Shown one piece after another: positions 13,412 through 64,000 of a stretch of DNA of 64,000 bases. The DNA lies in assembly GCA_041674205.1 (NCBI GenBank), contig JBAYWF010000002.1:46940-110939 (forward strand). The letters run 5' to 3'. The notes beneath the pieces were generated by a model. It did no database searches. It saw only the letters and a list, made by a program, of their open reading frames with translations, and had not been told where the DNA came from. The stretch is from Parcubacteria group bacterium. Its GTDB lineage: Bacteria > Patescibacteriota > Minisyncoccia > Moranbacterales > UBA2206. How positions within the stretch are numbered: the stretch's first letter is position 1; each line of letters begins with the position of its first letter. A program made the translations under genes and the position numbers.

Positions 13412-13485
13412 GGGCCCTTAGCTCAGTTGGCTAGAGCGCCTCGTTTGCACCGAGGAGGCCGGGAGTTCGAATCCCCCAGGGTCCA
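13412..13485 (+). tRNA. tRNA-Ala (anticodon UGC)
   Basis: cloverleaf read by eye; G3:U70 in acceptor stem; anticodon loop tTTGCAc; CCA not encoded. Confidence 0.85.
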
Positions 13486-13551: not shown

Positions 13552-13625
13552 GGGCTTATAGCTCAGTTGGTTAGAGCGCGTCACTGATAATGACGAGGTC
13601 TCAAGTTCGAATCTTGATAAGCCCA
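13552..13625 (+). tRNA. tRNA-Ile (anticodon GAU)
   Basis: cloverleaf read by eye; anticodon loop cTGATAa. Confidence 0.85.
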
Positions 13626-54492: not shown

Positions 54493-54647
54493 TTTTGTTT
54501 TCCGTACCCGCGCCTCAAGCGCGGGATATTAAATTATTAGTCGGAAGGCTGCAGCGCTTCCTGATGATATTTTATCACTGCCGTTATCACTGTCAAGTTT
54601 TCGGCTGTGGATAACTTATTGCAGCGGTCCGACCCCTCCAAAAAACT

Positions 54648-55609: not shown

Positions 55610-56623
55610 TCAATTCTTGGCCAGCAAGTTGGTGATGAGCGCGATCATGGTTTCTTTTTCTTTCGGATGGCTTTCCGCCACGAGCAAGGCCAGCGCCGTC
55701 AAAGCGTTGTCATTGATTTTCTTTTCTCCATTGGCGCCGTAGAGATAATTATTGCGGTCCAAAAAATAGATAAACAGGAAAGCTCCCATACGTTTGTTGC
55801 CATCGGAAAACGGATGATCCTTGATTACTAGGTACAGCAAGTGCGCCGCCTTGCTTTCCAAATCAGCATACAATTCCTTGCCGTCGAAAGTTTGGTATAG
55901 GTTTTTGATGACCGATTCGAACGCGCCACCCCTTTCATTGCCGAAAATATCACCCGCTTCTTTCTTAGCCAGCAATTCCCTTTTGACTTCCGTCACGATT
56001 TTTTGGCAATCTTCATACCGCAAAACGAATTTGGCCTTGCCTGCGCGCGCCTTCTTCAAACTGCTCTTATCATATTGCTCCAAGAGGGTCAAAGTCTTGG
56101 CGTAGTCCGCCAACAGATCCATAATTTCAACCTCTTGCCCTTTCAACGTTTTCGCGTGGACTTTTTCCCGCAAGAAGGAAATGGTTTTTTGCAGTTTTTC
56201 AAAATTTTCCTTTTCCTGCAAAAGCCTTTTCTGATTGATGGTGTAGCCTTTTAACAAATGCTCCCGCAATACATTGGTCGCCCAGATGCGGAATTGGGTG
56301 GCGCGAGTCGAATTGACCCGATAACCGATAGAAATAACAGCATCTAGATTATAAAATTGGATTTTATAGACTTTACCATCAGAGGCAGTATGTTCCAAAA
56401 TGGAACTAACTGAACTCTTCTTCAGCTCGCCGGATTTAAAGACATTTTGCAAATGTTTTGTAATTGCAGGTCTCTGCGTACCAAAAAGCATTGCAATTTG
56501 ATCCTGCGTAAGCCAAACTGTTTCTTTCTCGAATTTAATCTCCAATTCAACCTCCCCTGCCTTGGATTTGTAAATTATGACTTCACCTTCTTGTGGAACC
56601 TTTTTTAAGTTTTGTTTTACCAT
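55610..56623 (-). CDS. RhuM-like N-terminal domain fused to Fic (AMPylase-type) domain
   Basis: C-terminal HPFSDGNKRMG matches Fic motif HPFx[DE]GNGR; N-terminal KIQFYNLDAVISIGYRVNS RhuM-like. Confidence 0.7.
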   Translation of the reverse strand: MVKQNLKKVPQEGEVIIYKSKAGEVELEIKFEKETVWLTQDQIAMLFGTQRPAITKHLQNVFKSGELKKSSVSSILEHTASDGKVYKIQFYNLDAVISIGYRVNSTRATQFRIWATNVLREHLLKGYTINQKRLLQEKENFEKLQKTISFLREKVHAKTLKGQEVEIMDLLADYAKTLTLLEQYDKSSLKKARAGKAKFVLRYEDCQKIVTEVKRELLAKKEAGDIFGNERGGAFESVIKNLYQTFDGKELYADLESKAAHLLYLVIKDHPFSDGNKRMGAFLFIYFLDRNNYLYGANGEKKINDNALTALALLVAESHPKEKETMIALITNLLAKN

Positions 56624-56715
56624 ATTTTTTAACTTATTTGATTATAGTGATATAGTATCATTATAATCGAATCCGTCAACCCTTCACGACCTTGTTTATT
56701 GCAACTATCAAAAAA

Positions 56716-56747
56716 CGCATGGACATTCTCACATTCTCGAGAATGTG
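56716..56747. promoter_or_regulatory. 32-bp near-perfect palindrome upstream of Fic gene (GAATGT half-sites, centred on CTCGAG)
   Basis: ACATTCTCACATTCTCGAGAATGTGAGAATAT. Confidence 0.6.
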
Positions 56748-56756
56748 AGAATATGT

Positions 56757-57380
56757 TCATTGCCCATCATCATCCAGGAAATTCCCGAGCTCAGAAATGT
56801 TCAAAAAATCTATGCCGGCGGCCTGGGCCGCGCCGCTGTCGGCCCGGCTATCGCCGATAAGCAGGTATCGCGATTTCGGAAAGCTCCCGTCAAAAATCAA
56901 GGAAAAACCGTCCGCCCGCGGTTTGATATACCGGACATCGTTGCGCGTAACGATCTTTGCGAAAAATTTCGCCCAACCCAGCTCCTCCAAAATCAGCTGG
57001 ATCGTCCGCCGGTCATTGGATGTCCATAAATATAATTCGGCATACTTCCGGGATAATTCGAGCAGGGGCGCCGCGAGCGGCGACAAGTCGTAGCCGTAAA
57101 AAAAATCTTTTTCAATCCCGAAATTCATTTCATTCATCCTCTCGCTGGCCGCATCGCCACCTTTTTCGATGCAAAGATTTATCTTCTCGGAATAATTCAA
57201 ATCAGGGCTCTCGCTGAAATCCAACCCGAACTCGGAAAAAATGCCATCCAGCTCCTCGCACCAAGGCTTCCAATCGACCAACAACGTGCAGAGCGTCTTG
57301 TCGAAATCGAAAATAATATGCTTGATGTCTTTTTCTTGGATGTAGTTTTCGAACTGTTCTTTTTTCATGTTTTTTTGCAA
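56757..57380 (-). CDS. HAD-superfamily hydrolase
   Basis: IIFDFDKTL (DxDxT motif). Confidence 0.7.
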   Translation of the reverse strand: MQKNMKKEQFENYIQEKDIKHIIFDFDKTLCTLLVDWKPWCEELDGIFSEFGLDFSESPDLNYSEKINLCIEKGGDAASERMNEMNFGIEKDFFYGYDLSPLAAPLLELSRKYAELYLWTSNDRRTIQLILEELGWAKFFAKIVTRNDVRYIKPRADGFSLIFDGSFPKSRYLLIGDSRADSGAAQAAGIDFLNISELGNFLDDDGQ

Positions 57381-57397
57381 ATAATCAAACCCAAAAT

Positions 57398-57440
57398 GGG
57401 AAATTTAATACGTATAAAGGTAAGTGTTAAAATCATTCAC
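57398..57440. promoter_or_regulatory. motif B copy (immediately upstream of HAD gene)
   Basis: GGGAAATTTAATACGTATAAAGGTAAGTGTTAAAATCATTCAC. Confidence 0.55.
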
Positions 57441-57656
57441 TGATCTCGATTTAAGTATAGCACCTTAAAATATATGGCCAAATAAAAATACTACTGATGA
57501 AAACCACTGCCGGTGTCAGCCTGCCGCATACGCGAAACATCAAAGGGGAAATAAAAAAAGGCCGCTTCCTGGTTAGGGGCGACCTTCGTGAAAAATTATT
57601 CGAGTTTATTTATATATGCTTGTTTGTACGTGGCATTCTTTTTCTTCGGGAGATGA

Positions 57657-58283
57657 TTAGGTGGCAGGCTGCATACCTTTAAGCTTATTTATCCCTCTGC
57701 GTTCAGCCTCGATTATTTGAATGAAAATAGGATAATAACCTTTCTTATCATCGATCGGGTCGCCATAAATATTATACGCCATATTCCCCCGCCTTTTTGT
57801 TTCCCACAAGAAACCATCGAAACTCTCTTTGCCAGCATTGCAAAGAAACATTTCCCCGGACTTAAGTTCCGGATGCCGGTCATTTGAAAAGGGTTTTTCA
57901 TGGATGATATTGATTTCTCCGCCTTTTTCATATGCCCTTAAATCCTGACTTAATCCGATTGGTTCCGATTTGTAATCCTTGGGACCATTCTTGAAAAAAG
58001 CCATCCCGACGCAACCCACCAAAGTCAATGAATTCGTCCGGGCAAAAGCGAGAAAATCTTCAAAAACTTCTCTCCATGTATTACTGAAAGGCGAAACACC
58101 TTCATTAACAGAGATGGCCATGTATCTTGTCATACTATGGACTTCATTTTTAATCCGGAAAATTGCATGATCAGGAGATGATGGTGGAGATTCCACCAGA
58201 GCATGCGGGAAAAAACTAAAGCTGGAAAGTTGCAAAACTGGCGTTTCTCGCTCTCCTTTGGTTGGCTCTCTAAGGATGGCCAT
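57657..58283 (-). CDS. hypothetical protein (start possibly internal at MTRYMAIS)
   Basis: ORF only; no motif recognised. Confidence 0.35.
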   Translation of the reverse strand: MAILREPTKGERETPVLQLSSFSFFPHALVESPPSSPDHAIFRIKNEVHSMTRYMAISVNEGVSPFSNTWREVFEDFLAFARTNSLTLVGCVGMAFFKNGPKDYKSEPIGLSQDLRAYEKGGEINIIHEKPFSNDRHPELKSGEMFLCNAGKESFDGFLWETKRRGNMAYNIYGDPIDDKKGYYPIFIQIIEAERRGINKLKGMQPAT

Positions 58284-58489
58284 GGCTTTTCCTCCACTGT
58301 TGATTTTTTATCTATGAATCACATTGTAATTGTTTGTAAAAGTAATATGGCATCCTACTAATAAAACGCGATTTTGTCAATAAAAAAATGCCTTCACAAC
58401 GTGCCTATTATCCCGCCGTGAAGGAAAAATTTATTTCCGAAGGTCCAACCTTCGAAGCCAATGACACGTAGCCGACTCCTCAATTAAAA

Positions 58490-58726
58490 TCATTCTATCC
58501 TCCGCCAATGCCGGTGTTCGACATAGACGATCCGCCACCAGGTTTGGCCCAGAAAATATCCGCCGATGAGGCCGGCAAGGAAAAACGCAGCACTGGCATA
58601 TCCCGGCAAGCCGTCCACCGCCCCGCTATTCAAATAGCGGATATCCAGCAAGCCGAACGCAATCACCGCCAACAGTACTCCCAAAAACATCGTGAGGATG
58701 ATATAGATTGTTTTTTTGATTTGCAT
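58490..58726 (-). CDS. small 2-TM membrane protein
   Basis: 78 aa, two hydrophobic helices. Confidence 0.4.
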   Translation of the reverse strand: MQIKKTIYIILTMFLGVLLAVIAFGLLDIRYLNSGAVDGLPGYASAAFFLAGLIGGYFLGQTWWRIVYVEHRHWRRIE

Positions 58727-58740
58727 TTGGTTTTGATTTG

Positions 58741-58786
58741 AAAAAATTTAATACGTATTAAGGTAAGTATTTAATCATGTATATCC
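58741..58786. promoter_or_regulatory. motif B copy (upstream of small membrane protein gene); contains perfect 14-bp palindrome TTAATACGTATTAA
   Basis: AAAAAATTTAATACGTATTAAGGTAAGTATTTAATCATG. Confidence 0.55.
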
Positions 58787-59364
58787 ACAACAACGAACTC
58801 CGTTTCTTTCACCGCATACACCGGCAATTTTTCCGCGTAGCCTTCCAGCATTTCCAATTTATCCCTTCCACTCGTTGCCGCATATTCCCCGGTCGACAAA
58901 TAGTGCGCGATCATTTTCGCATGCAAAAAATCCAGGCCTGCTAGGATTTTATCATGATCTTGGTCATAATAGTATTTCATAAACACCAAAGCGCCGGCTG
59001 AAGAACCTGCCACGACCTTGCTCTCGAATAATCTTTGAAGATCAGGAACTTTTTCCAACTGGGTCTGCAGCATCGGCGTCGATCCTCCGCGGATATAGAC
59101 GACATCGCACCATTCCACCTGTTTGGCGAATTCCCCCGGATCGGCGCTGGCGATTTGGAATCCGATTTCGCGGCCATCCGCGCGTGCCTCAAATTTATTT
59201 TCATGCTCCCCTGCCAATCCAGCCCACCGTTCCTTTTCCACGGCGAAATACGTCAACAAAATCTTGGCCGGTCCGGAAACCGAGCCCAGGATTTCTTTAT
59301 AGTATTTATCGTTGCTTTCACAAGGCACGCCCGCCATGCCGCCGTGGAGGAAATATTTGGTCAT
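58771..59364 (-). CDS. peptidase S51 / class I glutamine-amidotransferase-like protein
   Basis: YIRGGSTPML...VVAGSSAGALVF nucleophile elbow. Confidence 0.55.
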   Translation of the reverse strand: MTKYFLHGGMAGVPCESNDKYYKEILGSVSGPAKILLTYFAVEKERWAGLAGEHENKFEARADGREIGFQIASADPGEFAKQVEWCDVVYIRGGSTPMLQTQLEKVPDLQRLFESKVVAGSSAGALVFMKYYYDQDHDKILAGLDFLHAKMIAHYLSTGEYAATSGRDKLEMLEGYAEKLPVYAVKETEFVVVDIHD

Positions 59365-59376
59365 AGGTTTTGGTTG

Positions 59377-59406
59377 GAATATTTAATATACGTTAATACA
59401 ATCACC
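59377..59406. promoter_or_regulatory. motif B-related half copy (upstream of S51 gene, next to motif A)
   Basis: GAATATTTAATATACGTTAATACAATCACC. Confidence 0.4.
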
Positions 59407-59421
59407 TTGAATTATTTTGTT

Positions 59422-59446
59422 GGCTTTCTGCAGAATGTGGGAATGT
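59422..59446. promoter_or_regulatory. motif A copy 1 (upstream of S51 peptidase gene)
   Basis: GGCTTTCTGCAGAATGTGGGAATGT. Confidence 0.6.
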
Positions 59447-59458
59447 TGTTTTTTATAT

Positions 59459-60037
59459 CTATTCCCTTCCGATCTTGTCCAACAATCCATCAAAGGGGAA
59501 ATTTTCAGTATAGATAATCGGGTTTTCAGCTTTAGTCGGACGTTCGAAATTAATAGCATCTTCTGTCAGCCAGCCTGAGGGAACATCATGCCTGTCGCGA
59601 GTTATTTTGTTGCGCGCCTTCCTTTCCTTCAACACCTCAACGGGAATATCCAGATATACTAAAGAAAAATCGACACCCATATCTTTCGCTACGGCACGCA
59701 GATCTTCACGCTGGCGGAAAAGCAAGCAGTTGTCGTCAAAAACCACCGAATTGCCGATGAGCAATTGGTTCTTGGCTCCCTGCACGGCAATCGGCCAGAG
59801 ATTGTTCCACAGCGAATCATCATCGTCGTCCGGCGTGCTTTCAAGGGCTAATATTTTTTCAATGGCAAAATAGATGCGATCGCGCCCGACTATTTCCGCC
59901 CCAAAAGACTCGGACAATTTCTTGGAAAGTGTCGTCTTTCCGGAAAAAGCTTCCCCGCAAAGAATAATGAGACGCTGTTTTTCCTTTTTCATATCATTTT
60001 TAATGTTAATTGATTGTGGATTATCCCGCACTGACAT
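59459..60037 (-). CDS. P-loop kinase (AAA_33 / zeta-toxin-like fold)
   Basis: LIILCGEAFSGKTTLSKKL Walker A. Confidence 0.55.
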   Translation of the reverse strand: MSVRDNPQSINIKNDMKKEKQRLIILCGEAFSGKTTLSKKLSESFGAEIVGRDRIYFAIEKILALESTPDDDDDSLWNNLWPIAVQGAKNQLLIGNSVVFDDNCLLFRQREDLRAVAKDMGVDFSLVYLDIPVEVLKERKARNKITRDRHDVPSGWLTEDAINFERPTKAENPIIYTENFPFDGLLDKIGRE

Positions 60038-60067
60038 TCTGTCTTTCTGCAGAATGTGAGAATGTCG
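60031..60067. promoter_or_regulatory. motif A copy 2 (upstream of P-loop kinase gene)
   Basis: CTGACATTCTGTCTTTCTGCAGAATGTGAGAATGTCG. Confidence 0.6.
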
Positions 60068-60072
60068 TTTTA

Positions 60073-60372
60073 CTAGAATGTTCTTATGAATTTCAGGAAG
60101 AGCTTGCCATAGGGCGAAAGTGAATGCCGGATTCCCCTACCTTGGCGGGTCTTATTGATTAGTCCGGATTGCACCAGTTTTTTAGTATGTTCGGAAATGG
60201 TTTTGATATTGCCTCGCATGATCGCGCAGATGCTATCCAGCGTGATTCCGTCATGTTCAGCCACTATAAACAAAATCTCTATCCTTCGGTGGTTAGCTAC
60301 GCCTTTCAAGTGCCGTTCCATCTGCCGGGGAGTTTTTTGCTTCTTTTCAATTTTTCTCTTTTTGGCTAACAT
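60073..60372 (-). CDS. ArsR/SmtB-family winged-helix transcriptional regulator
   Basis: HRRIEILFIVAEHDGITLDSICAIMRGNIKTISEHTKKLVQSGLI HTH. Confidence 0.7.
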   Translation of the reverse strand: MLAKKRKIEKKQKTPRQMERHLKGVANHRRIEILFIVAEHDGITLDSICAIMRGNIKTISEHTKKLVQSGLINKTRQGRGIRHSLSPYGKLFLKFIRTF

Positions 60373-60445
60373 AATTTAATTTTATAACCGCCAACACACT
60401 ATCATATTTCAATAATATCACAATCCTACCATCCCACAACATCCT

Positions 60446-60472
60446 GGCTTTCTGCAGAATGTCGGAATGTCG
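60446..60472. promoter_or_regulatory. motif A copy 3 (upstream of ArsR gene itself)
   Basis: GGCTTTCTGCAGAATGTCGGAATGTCG. Confidence 0.6.
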
Positions 60473-60627
60473 CGGTGGCATATGTGTGATATGTGCGGGC
60501 TATTTCAGATTGAAGGCTTGGTGCGGGATGGATTGCTCGAGAGCGGCAAGGTCGGATTGGGTGGATTTTTGGCGAGCCTGCAAGCGGGCGATTTTTTCGC
60601 GATTTACATCCAGCCGCATGATGATCC

Positions 60628-61095
60628 CTAATTCAAAATCCAAATCGAATAATTAAGATAGCCGGCGAAGCTGACCCAAAGAATATATGGCGCCAGAAGC
60701 CAGGCGGCTGTCTTGGAAATTTTGGCGAAGGCGATGATTGTGGCAAGGATGGCCAGCCAAAGAAAAGTCATCTCTAAAAGCGCGCCGCCTGGGGAATGGA
60801 GGCCGAAAAAGACAATCGACCAAAGCGCGTTCAAAACCATCTGGATCCCGAAAGTCCAAAAAGCCAAGCGTTTGTTTTTTCCGCCTTCGTCCGTCCAGAC
60901 AAGATAGAGCGCGTAGCCCATCAAAAGAAACAGCGCCGTCCAGACCGGACCGAATACCCACGCCGGCGGATTGAGAGCGGGCTTCACCAGCACCGGATAC
61001 CAATTTTTCACCGAACCGATCGTAAAAAAACTCCCCAATCCTCCCGCCAATTGCGGGATAAGAAGTGAAATGATGAGTTTGTATATTTTTTTCAT
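60628..61095 (-). CDS. tspO: TspO/MBR (translocator protein) family membrane protein
   Basis: 5 TM, Trp-rich, WYPVLVKPALNPPAWVFGPVWT. Confidence 0.75.
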   Translation of the reverse strand: MKKIYKLIISLLIPQLAGGLGSFFTIGSVKNWYPVLVKPALNPPAWVFGPVWTALFLLMGYALYLVWTDEGGKNKRLAFWTFGIQMVLNALWSIVFFGLHSPGGALLEMTFLWLAILATIIAFAKISKTAAWLLAPYILWVSFAGYLNYSIWILN

Positions 61096-61206
61096 ATATT
61101 TATTTTATTTTTTAATTGAGCAATAAAGGTACCCGACCCATTTTAATCATGGTTTTGTGACATGATTGGATGCGCTAATGCTTATTTTTTGCTTTTATTA
61201 TATCAT

Positions 61207-61244
61207 GCTGACATTCTGGCTTTCTGCAGAATGTGGGAATATCG
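61207..61244. promoter_or_regulatory. motif A copy 4 (upstream of tspO)
   Basis: GCTGACATTCTGGCTTTCTGCAGAATGTGGGAATATCG. Confidence 0.6.
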
Positions 61245-61288
61245 TTGTTGCTGTTTTTTTAAAAATAAACCTTCAGGACTAGCTTGAA

Positions 61289-61768
61289 TTATTTTACAAA
61301 ATTTTTGATTGCACTAATAAACTTTCCCGGTTCTGCCTCAATAGCCTTTTTCAATTCATCCCTGGAAAACCATCTGATCGCTTCCACCTCTTTCGGTTCA
61401 ATTTTAAATTCATTCAATCCTCTATCTAAAACTATTTTGTACCATTGGCAGAAATAATTATAGGTTCGGCTAACCCTGACCTTTTGAGCCTTCTCAAATT
61501 CAATTCCGCTCAAACCGATTTCCTCCTCTGCTTCTTTCACGATGTTGCTGTCATATGTTTCTCCCTCATCATTTGTTCCGGAAACGGCCGAACCCCATTT
61601 GCCAGGACTATGGCTCTTATTGAAAGATCTTTGAGCCAAAAGAACCTCGCCCTTGCTATTCTCAATCCACAAAGCACTGACGCGATAGATGTCATCGCGA
61701 ATCACTGAATCTCTTTCCTTGCTTCCGATAATTTCATCCTGCTCATTAACTATGATTATTTTTGCCAT
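61289..61768 (-). CDS. Nudix hydrolase
   Basis: Nudix box GTNDEGETYDSNIVKEAEEEIGL. Confidence 0.7.
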   Translation of the reverse strand: MAKIIIVNEQDEIIGSKERDSVIRDDIYRVSALWIENSKGEVLLAQRSFNKSHSPGKWGSAVSGTNDEGETYDSNIVKEAEEEIGLSGIEFEKAQKVRVSRTYNYFCQWYKIVLDRGLNEFKIEPKEVEAIRWFSRDELKKAIEAEPGKFISAIKNFVK

Positions 61769-61778
61769 AAAAAAAATT

Positions 61779-61828
61779 AAATTACTGAATTCCCTCCATA
61801 GGCGAGTAAAAAATTCATGAATTGTAGT
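61779..61828. promoter_or_regulatory. motif C copy split by ~20-nt insertion (upstream of Nudix gene)
   Basis: AAATTACTGAATT-ccctccataggcgagtaaaaa-ATTCATGAATT. Confidence 0.45.
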
Positions 61829-61878
61829 CGAGGACCGTCCTTTTTAAGCATGAATTTTTTCCCGTATCGGGCTTGGTT

Positions 61879-61916
61879 AAAAATTTAATACTTATCAAGG
61901 TAAGTATTAAATTACG
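61879..61916. promoter_or_regulatory. motif B copy (between NERD and Nudix genes)
   Basis: AAAAATTTAATACTTATCAAGGTAAGTATTAAATTACG. Confidence 0.5.
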
Positions 61917-61919
61917 TAA

Positions 61920-62714
61920 TTATATAACTGTCATTTTTTTATTTTCTTCACCTGATCTGATATACCGAGAAATTTGAAAAGATATTTCATTAACATCATC
62001 CCCACTAAATATTTCCTTTTCATTCGCTAGATATTTCGGTAAAGCTTTTGGCTCTAAAACCCACACGTCATTATTTTTCTTACTTGCCTTAATGAACCAT
62101 CCTGGATACACAACCACCGCCTTAACTGAAACATCTCTGCCTGTTATTTTGAGAATAAGTTTTTGAAGCCAATCCCGTTGCGCCTTTGCTTGGATAATTG
62201 GTTTTTCTGATATAGTCCCTCCGTTCATTCGAATACCTTTACTATCGTAATCAATAATTGCCTGTCCCTTCCCAGGCTTGCTCCATGTTTTAGTTTCAAT
62301 CGTAAACGCTCCAGCTGGCCCGATGATAATGTGATCTAAGTTAAATCCATCGCCAATCAGATCATGAAAAACAAAATATCCCTTGGTTCTCAGCGATTCT
62401 AAAAATTGACCAACTTCTCTTTCACCATCCCTGCCCAATTTTCTATTACTTATTTCCTTTTTTGCATACATATATTTTGCAATAGCATATCCAGTGACAA
62501 CGATTGCAACGAACGTCCATACTTCTGGCAAGGGTGGCTTGTCGTATGTTTTTTCATACCATTGAAGGAGCGCTACGACAATGGTAAATATAGCCAACAA
62601 AGCTGGGGAAATAATGCTATCATAAGCAATATCTCGAATTTCTTCGGTTAGTGATTGACCTGGATAACGCAAGGGCTGAGCTTTTAGTGGCGACTTCTTT
62701 TTTATATTGGCCAT
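61920..62714 (-). CDS. NERD (nuclease-related) domain protein with N-terminal TM helices
   Basis: GRDGEREVGQFL...YFVFHDL...DHIIIGPAGAFTIETK. Confidence 0.6.
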   Translation of the reverse strand: MANIKKKSPLKAQPLRYPGQSLTEEIRDIAYDSIISPALLAIFTIVVALLQWYEKTYDKPPLPEVWTFVAIVVTGYAIAKYMYAKKEISNRKLGRDGEREVGQFLESLRTKGYFVFHDLIGDGFNLDHIIIGPAGAFTIETKTWSKPGKGQAIIDYDSKGIRMNGGTISEKPIIQAKAQRDWLQKLILKITGRDVSVKAVVVYPGWFIKASKKNNDVWVLEPKALPKYLANEKEIFSGDDVNEISFQISRYIRSGEENKKMTVI

Positions 62715-62724
62715 TTTTTTATTT

Positions 62725-62754
62725 TAATTACTGAATTAATTCATGAATTATGGT
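62725..62754. promoter_or_regulatory. motif C copy (immediately upstream of NERD gene)
   Basis: TTAATTACTGAATTAATTCATGAATTATGG; overlapping palindromes TGAATTAATTCA and ATTCATGAAT. Confidence 0.55.
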
Positions 62755-62816
62755 CGGAAATGATTAATTAATGATTGCTCATTATTTTGCCTTAAAAGGT
62801 GCCTGACCCCATATAT

Positions 62817-63455
62817 CTATTTCAATTTGATGTAAATTTCAGGATCACCCTTGATCAGATTTTTGATTTCTTCTATCCTATTTTGCAAGAAATAATCGAA
62901 CTCTTCCGGAATGACGTTCGGAAAATCATAATCATGTGAAACGACCAGGACAGTTTCAGCATCCTCTTTCAGTTTTCTCACTAAGGGCTTCAAATAGCTG
63001 AACGTGTCTATTATGACATCTCTCGCCTCATCGATATCATAGCCATCAGTCTCGCTGAATCTTTTTGCGATTTCAGCCAAGTTTTCATCATTGATCAATG
63101 CATACATCTGAATAAAAGAATCCTTAGTTGGTATATATTCATCAATTTGCTCCAATTTGAAATAGCCGACCAATGTACCTAATTGACTCATATATTGCTC
63201 ATCTCCCATAGCTGAATTTATCAAGGCTGATACCGAACCCATTTTTAAATAAATATTTTCCAGCCCAGCTAAAAAATCATCACCCCCATATCGGTAGGCG
63301 TCTTTTAATTCTGAAAAATGCTCAAAAAATTTATTTTCTTCCGATTCACCAGCCTTCTCCACGGAATCGGCTTTCTTCACAAAATCTAAAAACTCAGCCA
63401 AAGTTTTTTCAGCTTCATCCTTGTTGAACGCAAAAATTTCTGTTATAACACTCAT
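62817..63455 (-). CDS. acidic hypothetical protein
   Basis: 212 aa, D/E-rich, no motif recognised. Confidence 0.4.
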   Translation of the reverse strand: MSVITEIFAFNKDEAEKTLAEFLDFVKKADSVEKAGESEENKFFEHFSELKDAYRYGGDDFLAGLENIYLKMGSVSALINSAMGDEQYMSQLGTLVGYFKLEQIDEYIPTKDSFIQMYALINDENLAEIAKRFSETDGYDIDEARDVIIDTFSYLKPLVRKLKEDAETVLVVSHDYDFPNVIPEEFDYFLQNRIEEIKNLIKGDPEIYIKLK

Positions 63456-63462
63456 TTTTTTA

Positions 63463-63505
63463 GGTAAGTAATTAATTACTGAATTAATTCATGAATTAAA
63501 ATTAT
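63463..63505. promoter_or_regulatory. motif B tail + motif C copy (upstream of acidic 212-aa gene)
   Basis: AGGTAAGTAATTAATTACTGAATTAATTCATGAATTAAAATTA. Confidence 0.55.
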
Positions 63506-63592
63506 TTCTGAAACACAAACAAATGTTCATGCATAATTAGGAGGAAATTACTTTCCTTGGAGCGATTCACCCAAAAGCCTGTGGCTTTGCAA

Positions 63593-63796
63593 TTAAAATC
63601 CTTCTGGCTCATCAATTTTTCCTTTGCAATTTATACAAAAGAATTCTTGTGATTCAACACTTTCATCTCCATGAAAATCATTCCACTGCCTCGTTTCTAG
63701 ATCGAAAGAATAATAACGAGTTTCTTTTTGAACAATGCCAATAACTTCGTTAGTATTCCTGCAATGCTTACATGTATATTTTTTTAATTTTTCCAT
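63593..63796 (-). CDS. small zinc-ribbon protein
   Basis: CKHC...CINC paired CxxC. Confidence 0.45.
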   Translation of the reverse strand: MEKLKKYTCKHCRNTNEVIGIVQKETRYYSFDLETRQWNDFHGDESVESQEFFCINCKGKIDEPEGF

Positions 63797-63797
63797 A

Positions 63798-63983
63798 TCA
63801 TTTTTCTTTTTTATCTTTCAGGTTAAAATGATAAGTTTTTTCATCTTTCAATTCAACTCCAATAACTTCATCAAACTCCATATCTTTGAGCCAAGCACTT
63901 TCTTCTTTGAAATTATCAAATGCTTCCTCCGCAACATTGCCTTTCCCCCATCCTAAAACTTGGCAATTTTCAACATCTGACAT
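63798..63983 (-). CDS. small hypothetical protein
   Basis: 61 aa ORF adjacent to Zn-ribbon ORF. Confidence 0.3.
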   Translation of the reverse strand: MSDVENCQVLGWGKGNVAEEAFDNFKEESAWLKDMEFDEVIGVELKDEKTYHFNLKDKKEK

Positions 63984-64000
63984 GTCACTTTCTGAATCAG

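Follow-up and report, generated by a model that had tools for sequence, protein, structure and literature searches.

The terminal part of a 64,000-nt stretch of DNA from a Parcubacteria group bacterium (contig JBAYWF010000002.1, positions 46,940 to 110,939; hereafter the window) is an island of about 13 short minus-strand open reading frames (ORFs; 55610-63983) in whose gaps three families of dyad-symmetric motifs, A, B, and C, recur. The locus raises the question of which proteins read these motifs and whether the genes form one regulon, as a sequence-only reading of the window had suggested. Comparison of about 90 related loci at the sequence level indicates that motif A is very probably the operator of an ArsR/MarR-like winged helix-turn-helix (wHTH) protein of 99 aa that is encoded in the island. 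We consider it likely that the island as a whole is a mosaic accessory region, in which genes have been joined to a few reusable control modules, at least two of them operators of tiny autoregulated DNA-binding proteins.

Recurrent palindromic motifs in the terminal island

The island of short minus-strand genes (55.6 to 64 kb) and its three motif families are real, as the sequence-only reading held, but the intergenic gaps, given there as 40 to 250 bp, measure 1 to 356 nt. Each long consensus has 2 to 3 copies at ≤3 mismatches, with 0.00 expected from 100 shuffles, and neither the long consensus sequences of A, B, and C nor their shorter cores have a convincing copy at positions 1 to 56000 of the window. 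With zero copies in these other 56 kb, motif A does not behave as the generic genome-wide promoter element that would have counted against the earlier proposal. Confinement of the motifs to this locus stood within the window, but not beyond it, for A, B, and C all recur in other Patescibacteria.

Motif A, a palindrome of 32 bp, is built from four units of 8 bp, two ACATTCnn followed by two nnGAATGT, of which the third is degenerate (CAGAAAGC). In the window it stands before four consecutive genes, encoding TspO, the wHTH protein, an AAA_33 kinase, and an S51-like peptidase (Table 1); the copy preceding the wHTH gene, already pointed out in the earlier reading, is the putative operator of that gene. 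A scan of GTDB (one genome per species) with a 21-nt motif A core found 15 stretches, in which ~35 nt of motif A are nearly identical. Most come from metagenome-assembled genomes (MAGs) named Moranbacteria, Parcubacteria, Paceibacteria, or Patescibacteria, four are named "bacterium," and three carry other phylum names. Each representative genome has only one to four exact cores, and the two of the closest relative both lie beside its wHTH gene.

Palindromes bracket the wHTH gene and overlap its promoter

ArsR/SmtB-family members bind as dimers to imperfect inverted repeats (12-2-12 type) that overlap their own promoters. A metagenome scan with the wHTH protein returned more than 287 relatives, and 80 loci with 53 to 86% identity were kept (compared loci carry L numbers). 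Palindromes were called by a detector with the center WWWCTNNAGWWW and ≤5 mismatches in a 16+16 pairing, which found 144 sites in 368 kb, where shuffled sequence gave 1, and in the 64-kb window only four island sites, a fifth copy being truncated. A family palindrome lies upstream of the wHTH gene in 66 of the 80 loci and downstream in 67, and it is at or overlaps the wHTH stop codon in 66. Relatives with more than 70% identity have the same 32-mer 37 to 67 nt upstream (L015, L018, L020-L022); the upstream copy is a CTGGAG variant in L019 and a symmetric variant in L023, and L016, L101, and L102 also have one. In L005 the detector found none at 37 to 67 nt, and a copy ~180 nt upstream is seen by sequence. 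A wHTH homologue follows motif A directly in L005, L015, and L016; in L010, a Moraniibacteriota MAG that is 90% identical over the wHTH-kinase stretch, motif A comes after the homologue, the locus being cut off on the homologue's upstream side.

The upstream copies share a fixed geometry. They abut TGTGTATAAT and a leaderless ATG, with T-G-T-G-T-A-T-A-A-T at a fixed offset, and 43 of the 66 upstream copies, compared with 8 of the 67 downstream ones, have a match of at least 5/6 to TATAAT at 16 to 18 nt from the center hexamer. The center hexamer TTGAGA points towards the gene in 35 upstream copies (n = 66) and away in 1; for downstream copies the figures are 33 and 3. The palindrome thus contains the −35 box and the spacer, which is the classical occlusion design, and since the start codon follows some 6 to 8 nt after the −10 box, the transcript would be leaderless. 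Accordingly arranged, the 43 sites resemble the inverted-repeat operators of ArsR/SmtB proteins that overlap their own promoters, as far as this can be read from sequence. In the clade of the window, the putative operator is 37 to 67 nt from the ATG, and several relatives have an extended −10 in the intervening stretch. In L101 (83% identity), the unit of motif A plus −10 occurs three times in tandem, driving Zn-ribbon, membrane-protein, and wHTH genes, the wHTH gene being last. About half of the downstream copies have a start codon 11 to 37 nt after them, in some cases with a weaker −10-like hexamer, and the palindromes are not trailed by a T-tract. The downstream copy could serve the following gene as its operator, act as a roadblock or in looping, or form a 3' hairpin; to our knowledge, neither looping nor tetramerization has been described for the family of this protein. 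In two unrelated genomes, the downstream copy is split at its center by a GC-rich hairpin insert (e.g., CCTGCCTGCCGGCAGGCAGG) at an identical point (L016 7283-7230, minus strand; L101 10240-10310).

From the motifs, their positions and conservation, the co-variation described below, and the promoter geometry, we infer binding, repression, an inducing signal, and a role for the downstream copy. The dimeric wHTH protein would bind motif A; in most relatives, the palindrome center TTGAGA would serve as −35 and the right arm as spacer, followed by TG-n-TATAAT and the leaderless ATG, so that the bound protein would occlude the promoter and repress its own gene. The further copies, at its own stop codon and before the TspO, kinase, and S51 genes, would place the neighbors under wHTH control, either as promoter-overlapping operators or as roadblock or looping sites.

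A predicted ArsR/SmtB-type fold lacking a metal site

The wHTH protein narrowly passes Pfam HTH_5 (PF01022; 23.2 bits, cut-off 22), also passes MarR (PF01047; 28.2 bits, cut-off 24.6), and is below threshold for the NCBIfam metalloregulator NF033788 (34.6 bits, cut-off 55). Its AlphaFold model (predicted local distance difference test score 90.4) adopts the ArsR/SmtB topology α1-α2-α3-αR-β1-β2-α5, with helices at residues 15-23, 25-39, 45-52, 56-68, and 87-98 and strands at 72-77 and 80-85; the helix 56-68, which contains residue 60, is the predicted recognition helix. The top Foldseek matches in the PDB are HlyU, SqrR, CadC, CzrA, and ArsR, with MarR-family chains ranked in between. The invariant columns are Q17, E19, R20, K23, G24, R30, N55, K57, T58, H62, G70, L71, K74, H83, P87, Y88, G89, and F99. 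There is no conserved cysteine, and neither the α3N CXC nor the α5 Asp/His cluster of a metal or metalloid site is present, which fits the non-metal (HlyU-like) subgroup. Homologues form 734 clusters, and all taxon-named ones are Patescibacteria or "unclassified bacterium."

Recognition helix and palindrome class vary together

When the proteins are ordered by similarity, each variant of the recognition helix has a palindrome class of its own. GN[IV]KTISEHTKKL goes with motif A of the window, CN[FLM]KTIS.H with the ACATTCCAAC.../ACATTCTCAC... types, including A5 (see below), ANEKTIGEHTRRLYQAGLLNKKYRGKFVEH with ACATCCTTACAAACTTGAGAATGTAAGGATGT, ANPKTIGEH with ...AAACTGGAGTTT..., and ANAKTIGEH with TTATCCTTAAATACTGGAGTATTTAAGGATAA. 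Residue 60 follows the inner half-site: Ser60 proteins (ACATTCT) always have CATT, TATT, or AATT, Gly60 proteins (ACAAACT) have CAAA, TAAA, or AATA except for one CATA site, and Cys60, found in one locus (L019), has CTTT/GATT. The upstream and downstream copies of the same gene differ at a median of 4 of 32 positions, compared with 9 for non-self pairs, and the Mantel r is 0.62, which none of 2000 permutations reached. In the two loci with two paralogues (L049, L094), each paralogue has its own palindrome class.

TspO is the most recurrent putative target

No conserved partner gene lies downstream of the wHTH gene in the 80 loci, where the neighbors are mostly singletons; those that recur are TspO, a SWIM-like 243-aa family, RhuM-Fic (L018, L032, L091), GIY-YIG, ASCH, and DUF2238. 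TspO is found ≤1.6 kb downstream of the wHTH gene in 6 of the 69 loci having ≥600 nt of downstream sequence, with three or more palindrome classes represented, and it recurs in the window; it appears from this distribution to be the most recurrent target of the wHTH family and would be its conserved core target. In three loci, a family palindrome lies inside the TspO ORF at about +212 nt (L062 4553-4590, L056 5193-5226, L078 4722-4759) and encodes, in frame, KQHPYILENVRML in the loop between TM2 and TM3. For identical codons, the third position is shared in 29 of 31 cases within this palindrome, against ~49% elsewhere in the same genes, and this conservation of synonymous sites indicates that the DNA itself is under selection. 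The TspO gene of the window has no intragenic palindrome. The wHTH-A-kinase arrangement is kept in L010. The gene found most often directly after the second putative operator of the wHTH gene (five loci) encodes the 243-aa protein, with a SWIM-like CxC...CxH and without a Pfam match (L046 550-1281, L053, L061, L074, L083).

A further palindrome, A5, consists of the units ACATTCTC ACATTCTC GAGAATGT GAGAATGT and is of the same type as the palindromes flanking another wHTH clade, with the CN[FLM]KTIS helix (L029, L068, L086). Lying before the Fic gene, it would represent the operator type of that paralogous clade and be bound either by a paralogue encoded elsewhere or through cross-recognition. 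Four genomes from different groups of the candidate phyla radiation (CPR) have A and A5 side by side, in palindromes stacked without intervening genes and always in the order B, (C), A, A5 (L006 1270-1480, minus strand; L014 5046-5170; L013 501-590; L017 6591-6672).

Motif B is associated with an AbrB/MazE-like protein

Motif B consists of AATACTTAC units with a 12-nt period and an inverted unit. The protein with which it is associated is encoded 3.7 kb beyond the window end, on L001, which is the same DNA on an ENA contig in gene orientation (1 mismatch in 11,184 nt; window position = 73456 minus L001 position). This AbrB/MazE-like protein of 55 aa (L001 5606-5773) passes Pfam PF04014 (28.5 bits, cut-off 24.7) and has relatives across CPR in 327 clusters with 65 to 100% identity. 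Motif B lies between its TTGCTT-17-TAAAAT promoter and its ATG in L001; the AbrB-like genes of L103, L104, L105, and L106 (78 to 89% identity) have AATACTTAC units in the stretch from −10 to ATG, GTATATACTT units are in the same arrangement in L107 and L021 (74 to 76%), and L108 has no such repeats. In this small sample of 8 loci, motif B is best read as the operator that the AbrB/MazE-like protein would use.

This match means that the ArsR-type gene is not the only regulator of the island. It is the sole one inside the window, as had been claimed, but beyond the window end the island also encodes the AbrB/MazE-like protein and Bro-N. The proposal of a co-regulated regulon stands in part: the four consecutive genes with motif A fit it, but the three motifs do not belong to one regulator, motif B following the AbrB/MazE-like protein and motif C having no assigned binder.

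No MazF, PemK, or other toxin gene lies beside the AbrB-like gene in L001, L103-L108, or L021, so that the protein looks like a solitary regulator. In three of the eight loci, the AbrB-like gene is directly upstream of methyltransferase, DpnI, or GmrSD genes (L001 5606-9339, L103 1501-3168, L108 146-1822), and it may control restriction-modification or defense genes. A combined terminator and promoter module was also noticed, in which a hairpin's T-tract leads into TTGCCA-17-TAAAAT-GGAAGCAGG, with motif B usually next (L001 551-665, 1830-1981, and 5432-5605; L010, reverse complement, 2800-2900).

Motif C and the reshuffling of modules

The core of motif C (CAGTAATTAATTACTTAC) differs from the B units by 1 nt per unit, and its C1 form is found again, as ATTACGTAATTAATTACTTACATAAAAAAT, ahead of unrelated genes in many CPR loci. 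It would be a promoter-proximal element ending 7 to 9 nt before the ATG. In L010, the same modules as in the window are joined to other genes; they comprise A, the TspO-type leader, C with its flank, B with its promoter, and short GGGTCGGGTACC-type elements. The module of A copy 1, its −10, and its leader sits after the kinase gene there, and GGACGGTCCTCGACTA plus the C module lies upstream of a non-homologous gene. The homology between the window and L010 stops inside motif A copy 4, which is a rearrangement junction. Elsewhere, the homologous block of L062 and L092 is exactly palindrome-wHTH-palindrome, and in L020/L021 and L031/L048 one end of the block falls at a palindrome edge. Modules on different genes, together with breaks at palindromes, indicate that the modules have been reshuffled. 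A NERD-type N-terminal remnant (ATGTCTAACATAAAAAAGAAATCACCGCTAAAG) in L010 (reverse complement, 2914-2946) is joined to the element found after the 212-aa gene of the window, direct evidence of a deletion or rearrangement there.

Horizontal acquisition, raised in the earlier reading, applies to one part of the island only. The sub-block that carries motif C, from the NUDIX gene to the start of the 84-aa gene (61289..63983, minus strand), is AT-rich, with a GC content at third codon positions (GC3) of 0.21 to 0.41 from NUDIX to Zn-ribbon, and this sub-block is, with the DNA beyond it, probably foreign. The motif A block, with a GC3 of 0.52 to 0.65 against 0.47 to 0.62 in reference genes, is host-like. 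An origin from phages or mobile elements was also considered and rejected: A and C have no exact match in IMG/VR, and three matches to B, lacking surrounding similarity, look like chance.

Genes and other features of the island

The genes and motif copies of the island are collected in Table 1. The kinase, earlier described as zeta-toxin-like, matches AAA_33/KTI12 and not the zeta-toxin family; its start was taken from the gene call in L001. The island genes appear to be separately promoted, although a generic sigma-70 scan of the island gave 21 sites against 18.5 expected. A generic scan for intrinsic terminators gave 9 sites against 7.1 expected, and A5 was the only motif to coincide with one. 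Rfam at gathering thresholds found nothing in the whole window but two tRNAs (13412-13485, 13552-13625). As read from L001, the island extends ~9 kb beyond the window end, with a DpnI-type restriction-modification operon and genes for the AbrB/MazE-like protein, Fic_N-Fic, and Bro-N, and it is bordered by EF-G on one side and AHSA1/DUF3276/RecQ on the other.

Table 1. Genes and motif copies of the island, in window coordinates
Feature	Position	Strand	Remarks
RhuM-Fic gene	55610..56623	-	Pfam; downstream of A5 and of promoter-like TTGACG-16-TACTAT (56679-56652), which overlaps palindrome D (56641-56659)
A5, perfect palindrome ATTCTCACATTCTCGAGAATGTGAGAAT	56723-56754	-	Directly 3' of HAD stop, ~43 nt upstream of Fic −35; RNA hairpin −17.9 kcal/mol, z = −4.9
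HAD hydrolase gene	56757-57368/57380	-	Pfam
Motif B copy	57401-57428	-	Upstream of HAD, ~23 nt downstream of promoter-like TTGGCC-16-TATACT (57481-57454)
208-aa protein gene	57657-58283	-	ORF call; no Pfam assignment; own TTGACA-17-TAGGAT site (58380-58352); no motif A, B, or C
78-aa membrane peptide gene	58490-58726	-	ORF call
Motif B copy	58744-58770	-	Fills 44-nt gap between S51 and 78-aa genes; RNA fold −0.8 kcal/mol, z = −0.4
Peptidase_S51-like gene	58771..59364	-	Pfam; 3' of truncated A copy and degenerate B-like repeat
Degenerate B-like copy	59381-59399	-	Upstream of S51
Motif A copy 4, truncated after GCAGAAAGCCA	59421-59446	-	Between kinase and S51 genes
AAA_33/KTI12-like P-loop kinase gene	59459..59992	-	Pfam AAA_33 4e-15; 3' of motif A copy 3
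Motif A copy 3	60034-60065	-	Begins 8 nt past wHTH stop; upstream of kinase; candidate −10 below it, GGGATAATCC at 60018-60027
ArsR/MarR-like wHTH gene, 99 aa	60073..60372	-	Pfam, AlphaFold model, Foldseek; candidate −10 elements read from sequence at 60412-60422 and 60370-60387
Motif A copy 2 (ACATTCCGACATTCTGCAGAAAGCCAGGATGT)	60439-60470	-	Upstream of wHTH gene; putative operator
TspO/MBR gene	60628..61095	-	Pfam 2.4e-51; between motif A copies 1 and 2
Motif A copy 1	61211-61242	-	Upstream of TspO; then extended −10 TGATATAAT at 61197-61205
NUDIX gene	61289-61768	-	Pfam
Motif C copy split by ~20-nt insert	61776-61823	-	Upstream of NUDIX
Motif B full palindrome (AATTTAATACTTA-CCTTGA-TAAGTATTAAATT)	61882-61913	-	Just after NERD stop; RNA hairpin −9.6 kcal/mol, z = −4.4
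NERD gene	61920-62714	-	Pfam
Motif C copy	62724-62749	-	Ends 9 nt before NERD start
212-aa protein gene	62817-63455	-	ORF call; no Pfam assignment
Motif C copy with C1 core CAGTAATTAATTACTTACC	63463/63472-63497	-	Ends 7 nt before 212-aa gene start
67-aa Zn-ribbon gene	63593-63796	-	ORF call
84-aa gene, start	up to 63983	-	ORF call

Several smaller elements accompany these features. A GC-rich ORF of 39 to 47 aa (MRLDVNREKIARLQARQKSTQSDLAALEQ...) without a family match lies between TspO and motif A copy 2 (60500-60643) and may be a gene remnant. A short repeat, GGGTC(G/A)GG(T/C)ACCTTT, occurs near gene 3' ends or in leaders, both in the window (61125-61139, 62794-62810) and in L010 (reverse complement; 1625-1640, 2945-2965, 2760-2775). 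Palindrome D (AGTGATAT-n-ATATCACT), whose half-site TATCAC is like that of lambda operators, overlaps a TATAAT box and lies upstream of RhuM-Fic, Bro-N, and the restriction-modification operon (the window site in Table 1; L001 2790-2830, 5800-5830) and recurs in relatives (L018 4796-4832; L103 after 1668). A DnaA-box-like word, GTTATCCACAG (TTATCCACA), is found in several gaps (window 54493-54647; L001 2297-2351, 2757-2842, 5774-5840; L103 after 1668), in one gap as an inverted pair and often ~20 nt before palindrome D.

Weighing the operator reading against its alternatives

A number of observations weigh against motifs A and B being the operators of the wHTH and AbrB/MazE-like proteins in a mosaic island. 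The wHTH promoter of the window is less canonical than is usual in the family, its putative operator being 67 nt away from the ATG; a recognizable −10 is missing from most downstream copies; and the asymmetry of the third motif A unit is conserved and unaccounted for. No paralogue able to bind A5 is encoded in the window or in L001, over the 73 kb covered, and the stack in L006, where B, C, A, A5, and A fall within ~250 nt, is odd for simple operators. Motif C lacks a candidate binder, detectors centered on ACGT, AATT, or CATG having given 7 sites in total, too few to tie to a gene. In the largest wHTH clade, the outer-arm positions 4 to 9 are of several types, and left and right arms often differ despite near-identical helices. 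Shared descent is a partial confounder of the co-variation across clades, since flanking sequence is inherited along with its gene. The stronger argument is that intergenic sites are still palindromic and in place at 53 to 65% protein identity.

Mobility offers another way to account for part of the data: the wHTH gene and its palindromes may be a movable regulatory cassette, whose operators spread, including in frame into TspO, recruit genes, and act as joints for reshuffling. A component of this kind is left open by the stacked palindromes, the in-frame TspO copy, and the edges of the homology blocks, although we regard the full cassette reading as unlikely. If it were true, the cassette would be a repressor-based counterpart of REPIN-RAYT, or an integrase-free cassette platform, in Patescibacteria.

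Alternatively, the palindromes could be selfish or structural repeats (REP/REPIN, BIME, or the RPE of Rickettsia) or terminator or RNA hairpins, and the association with the wHTH gene would then reflect linkage and not binding. Many copies do lie directly after stop codons, most downstream ones lacking a −10, different palindromes are stacked in L006, L013, L014, and L017, the in-frame copy in TspO is RPE-like, homology blocks stop at palindrome edges, and a gene bracketed by its repeats recalls REP-RAYT-REP. However, the bracketed gene encodes a 99-aa DNA-binding fold without a catalytic domain, and one to four exact cores per genome, with none at window positions 1 to 56000, fall far from the tens to hundreds of copies characteristic of REP/RAYT. 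The fixed promoter geometry of the upstream copies, the tracking of the palindrome class with a recognition-helix residue, and the purifying selection on synonymous sites of the intragenic TspO copy likewise speak for a bound site. As for RNA structure, A5 and one B copy have significant folds, but those of two B/C-type copies and of an additional C copy are weak (−0.8 to −3.5 kcal/mol), T-tracts are missing, and the genome also uses canonical terminators. We therefore judge repeats or hairpins to be quite improbable as the explanation.

Recombination sites of the lox/dif or attC kind, in a cassette array that is integrase-independent or served in trans, would explain why unrelated small genes lie in the same orientation separated by repeats, why A copy 4 is truncated exactly at the L010 breakpoint, with modules joined to different genes there, why palindrome-wHTH-palindrome is the unit of homology in L062/L092 (single edges in L020/L021 and L031/L048), and why hybrid left and right arms are frequent. 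Yet the genes called in L001 over the 10 kb upstream and 10.6 kb downstream of the query gene include no integrase or recombinase, and none was called in L101 or L102 either; the gaps have neither R''/R' cores (RYYYAAC/GTTRRRY) nor sites of attC length, and of the 36 loci that have hybrid arms, none has the reciprocal attL/attR pattern. Variation in the arms goes with the wHTH helix and not with a recombinase, and ordinary homologous recombination between 32- to 38-bp repeats would also explain the breakpoints, which leaves such sites very doubtful. An integron cassette array in particular was rejected, given that no integrase was called in the L001 neighborhood, no attC of 57 to 141 bp is present, and the repeats measure 25 to 38 bp and fall into three unrelated families.

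That the motifs are lineage-specific core-promoter elements, for instance of an alternative sigma factor, is most improbable: the strong orientation bias, the embedded −35-like hexamer followed by a −10, and the end of motif C 7 to 9 nt before start codons would fit, but the motifs are missing from the other 56 kb, where core genes including an EF-Tu-sized one lie, sigma recognition does not involve long perfect dyad symmetry, and distinct classes coexist in one locus, each by its own wHTH paralogue.

Significance of the proposed operator pairs

Patescibacteria (CPR) make up a large share of bacterial diversity and are almost entirely uncultivated. The literature searched contains no description of these motifs or of this regulator family, only the general concept of mobile promoters, and nothing on gene regulation in Patescibacteria. 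What appears to be new here is that putatively autoregulated repressor-operator pairs, of a known kind, occur as tiny-regulator modules throughout Patescibacteria. Two small regulator families with operators readable from sequence, the rule that pairs Ser60 or Gly60 with ATT or AAA, the leaderless promoters, and the conserved putative target TspO are all testable without cultivation, either in vitro or with E. coli as host. The co-diversified classes of helix and operator are candidate orthogonal repressor-operator pairs, and the reshuffled control modules illustrate how accessory genes may be wired into regulation in very small genomes.

Comparison with known systems

The wHTH protein resembles HlyU, SqrR/BigR, PagR, and YgaV, the non-metal ArsR/SmtB proteins, in its size of ~100 aa, its winged-helix topology, and its best sequence and structure matches. 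It is, however, only ~20% identical to any solved member, falls below the NCBIfam cut-offs, and has a Lys-rich N-terminal tail in addition to lacking conserved Cys residues and an α5 metal site. Its putative operator is 32 to 38 bp long with the −35 at the center, two copies bracket the gene, and the transcripts would mostly be leaderless; moreover, the family is limited to Patescibacteria and has diversified into many helix/operator classes.

Auxiliary operators that lie downstream or inside genes are known for classical repressors, such as lac O2 within lacZ and gal OI within galE. The wHTH loci are similar in that a second putative operator lies a few hundred bp downstream and, in three TspO genes, inside the coding sequence. 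They differ in that the second copy is at the repressor's own stop codon, where in some clades it encodes C-terminal residues (TFQHS*). The AbrB/MazE-like protein shares with the AbrB/MazE/SpoVT autoregulators the PF04014 domain and repeated units between its own −10 and ATG, but unlike MazE-type antitoxins, it is without an adjacent toxin partner in the eight loci.

With REP-RAYT/REPIN and the Rickettsia palindromic elements, the loci have in common a gene flanked by palindromes, the co-variation of classes, and an in-frame copy. Here, however, the flanked gene encodes a wHTH protein in place of an HUH transposase, the copy number is low, the promoter geometry is fixed, and the intragenic copy is under selection.

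Putative mobile promoters are similar promoter-region modules found upstream of non-homologous genes, within a genome and in related genomes (Matus-Garcia et al. 2012, PMC3488235). The island modules, which also stand upstream of non-homologous genes, may fit this published notion. The module of terminator, TTGCCA-17-TAAAAT, and motif B is 78.6 to 92.3% identical over 52 to 117 nt between L010 and two L001 sites, compared with the mobile-promoter criterion of ≥80% over 50 to 100 nt, whereas motif A cores measure only ~35 to 40 nt. Two further features set the island apart: binders can be proposed for two of its module types, and the modules are kept across classes of a superphylum, not only within genera.

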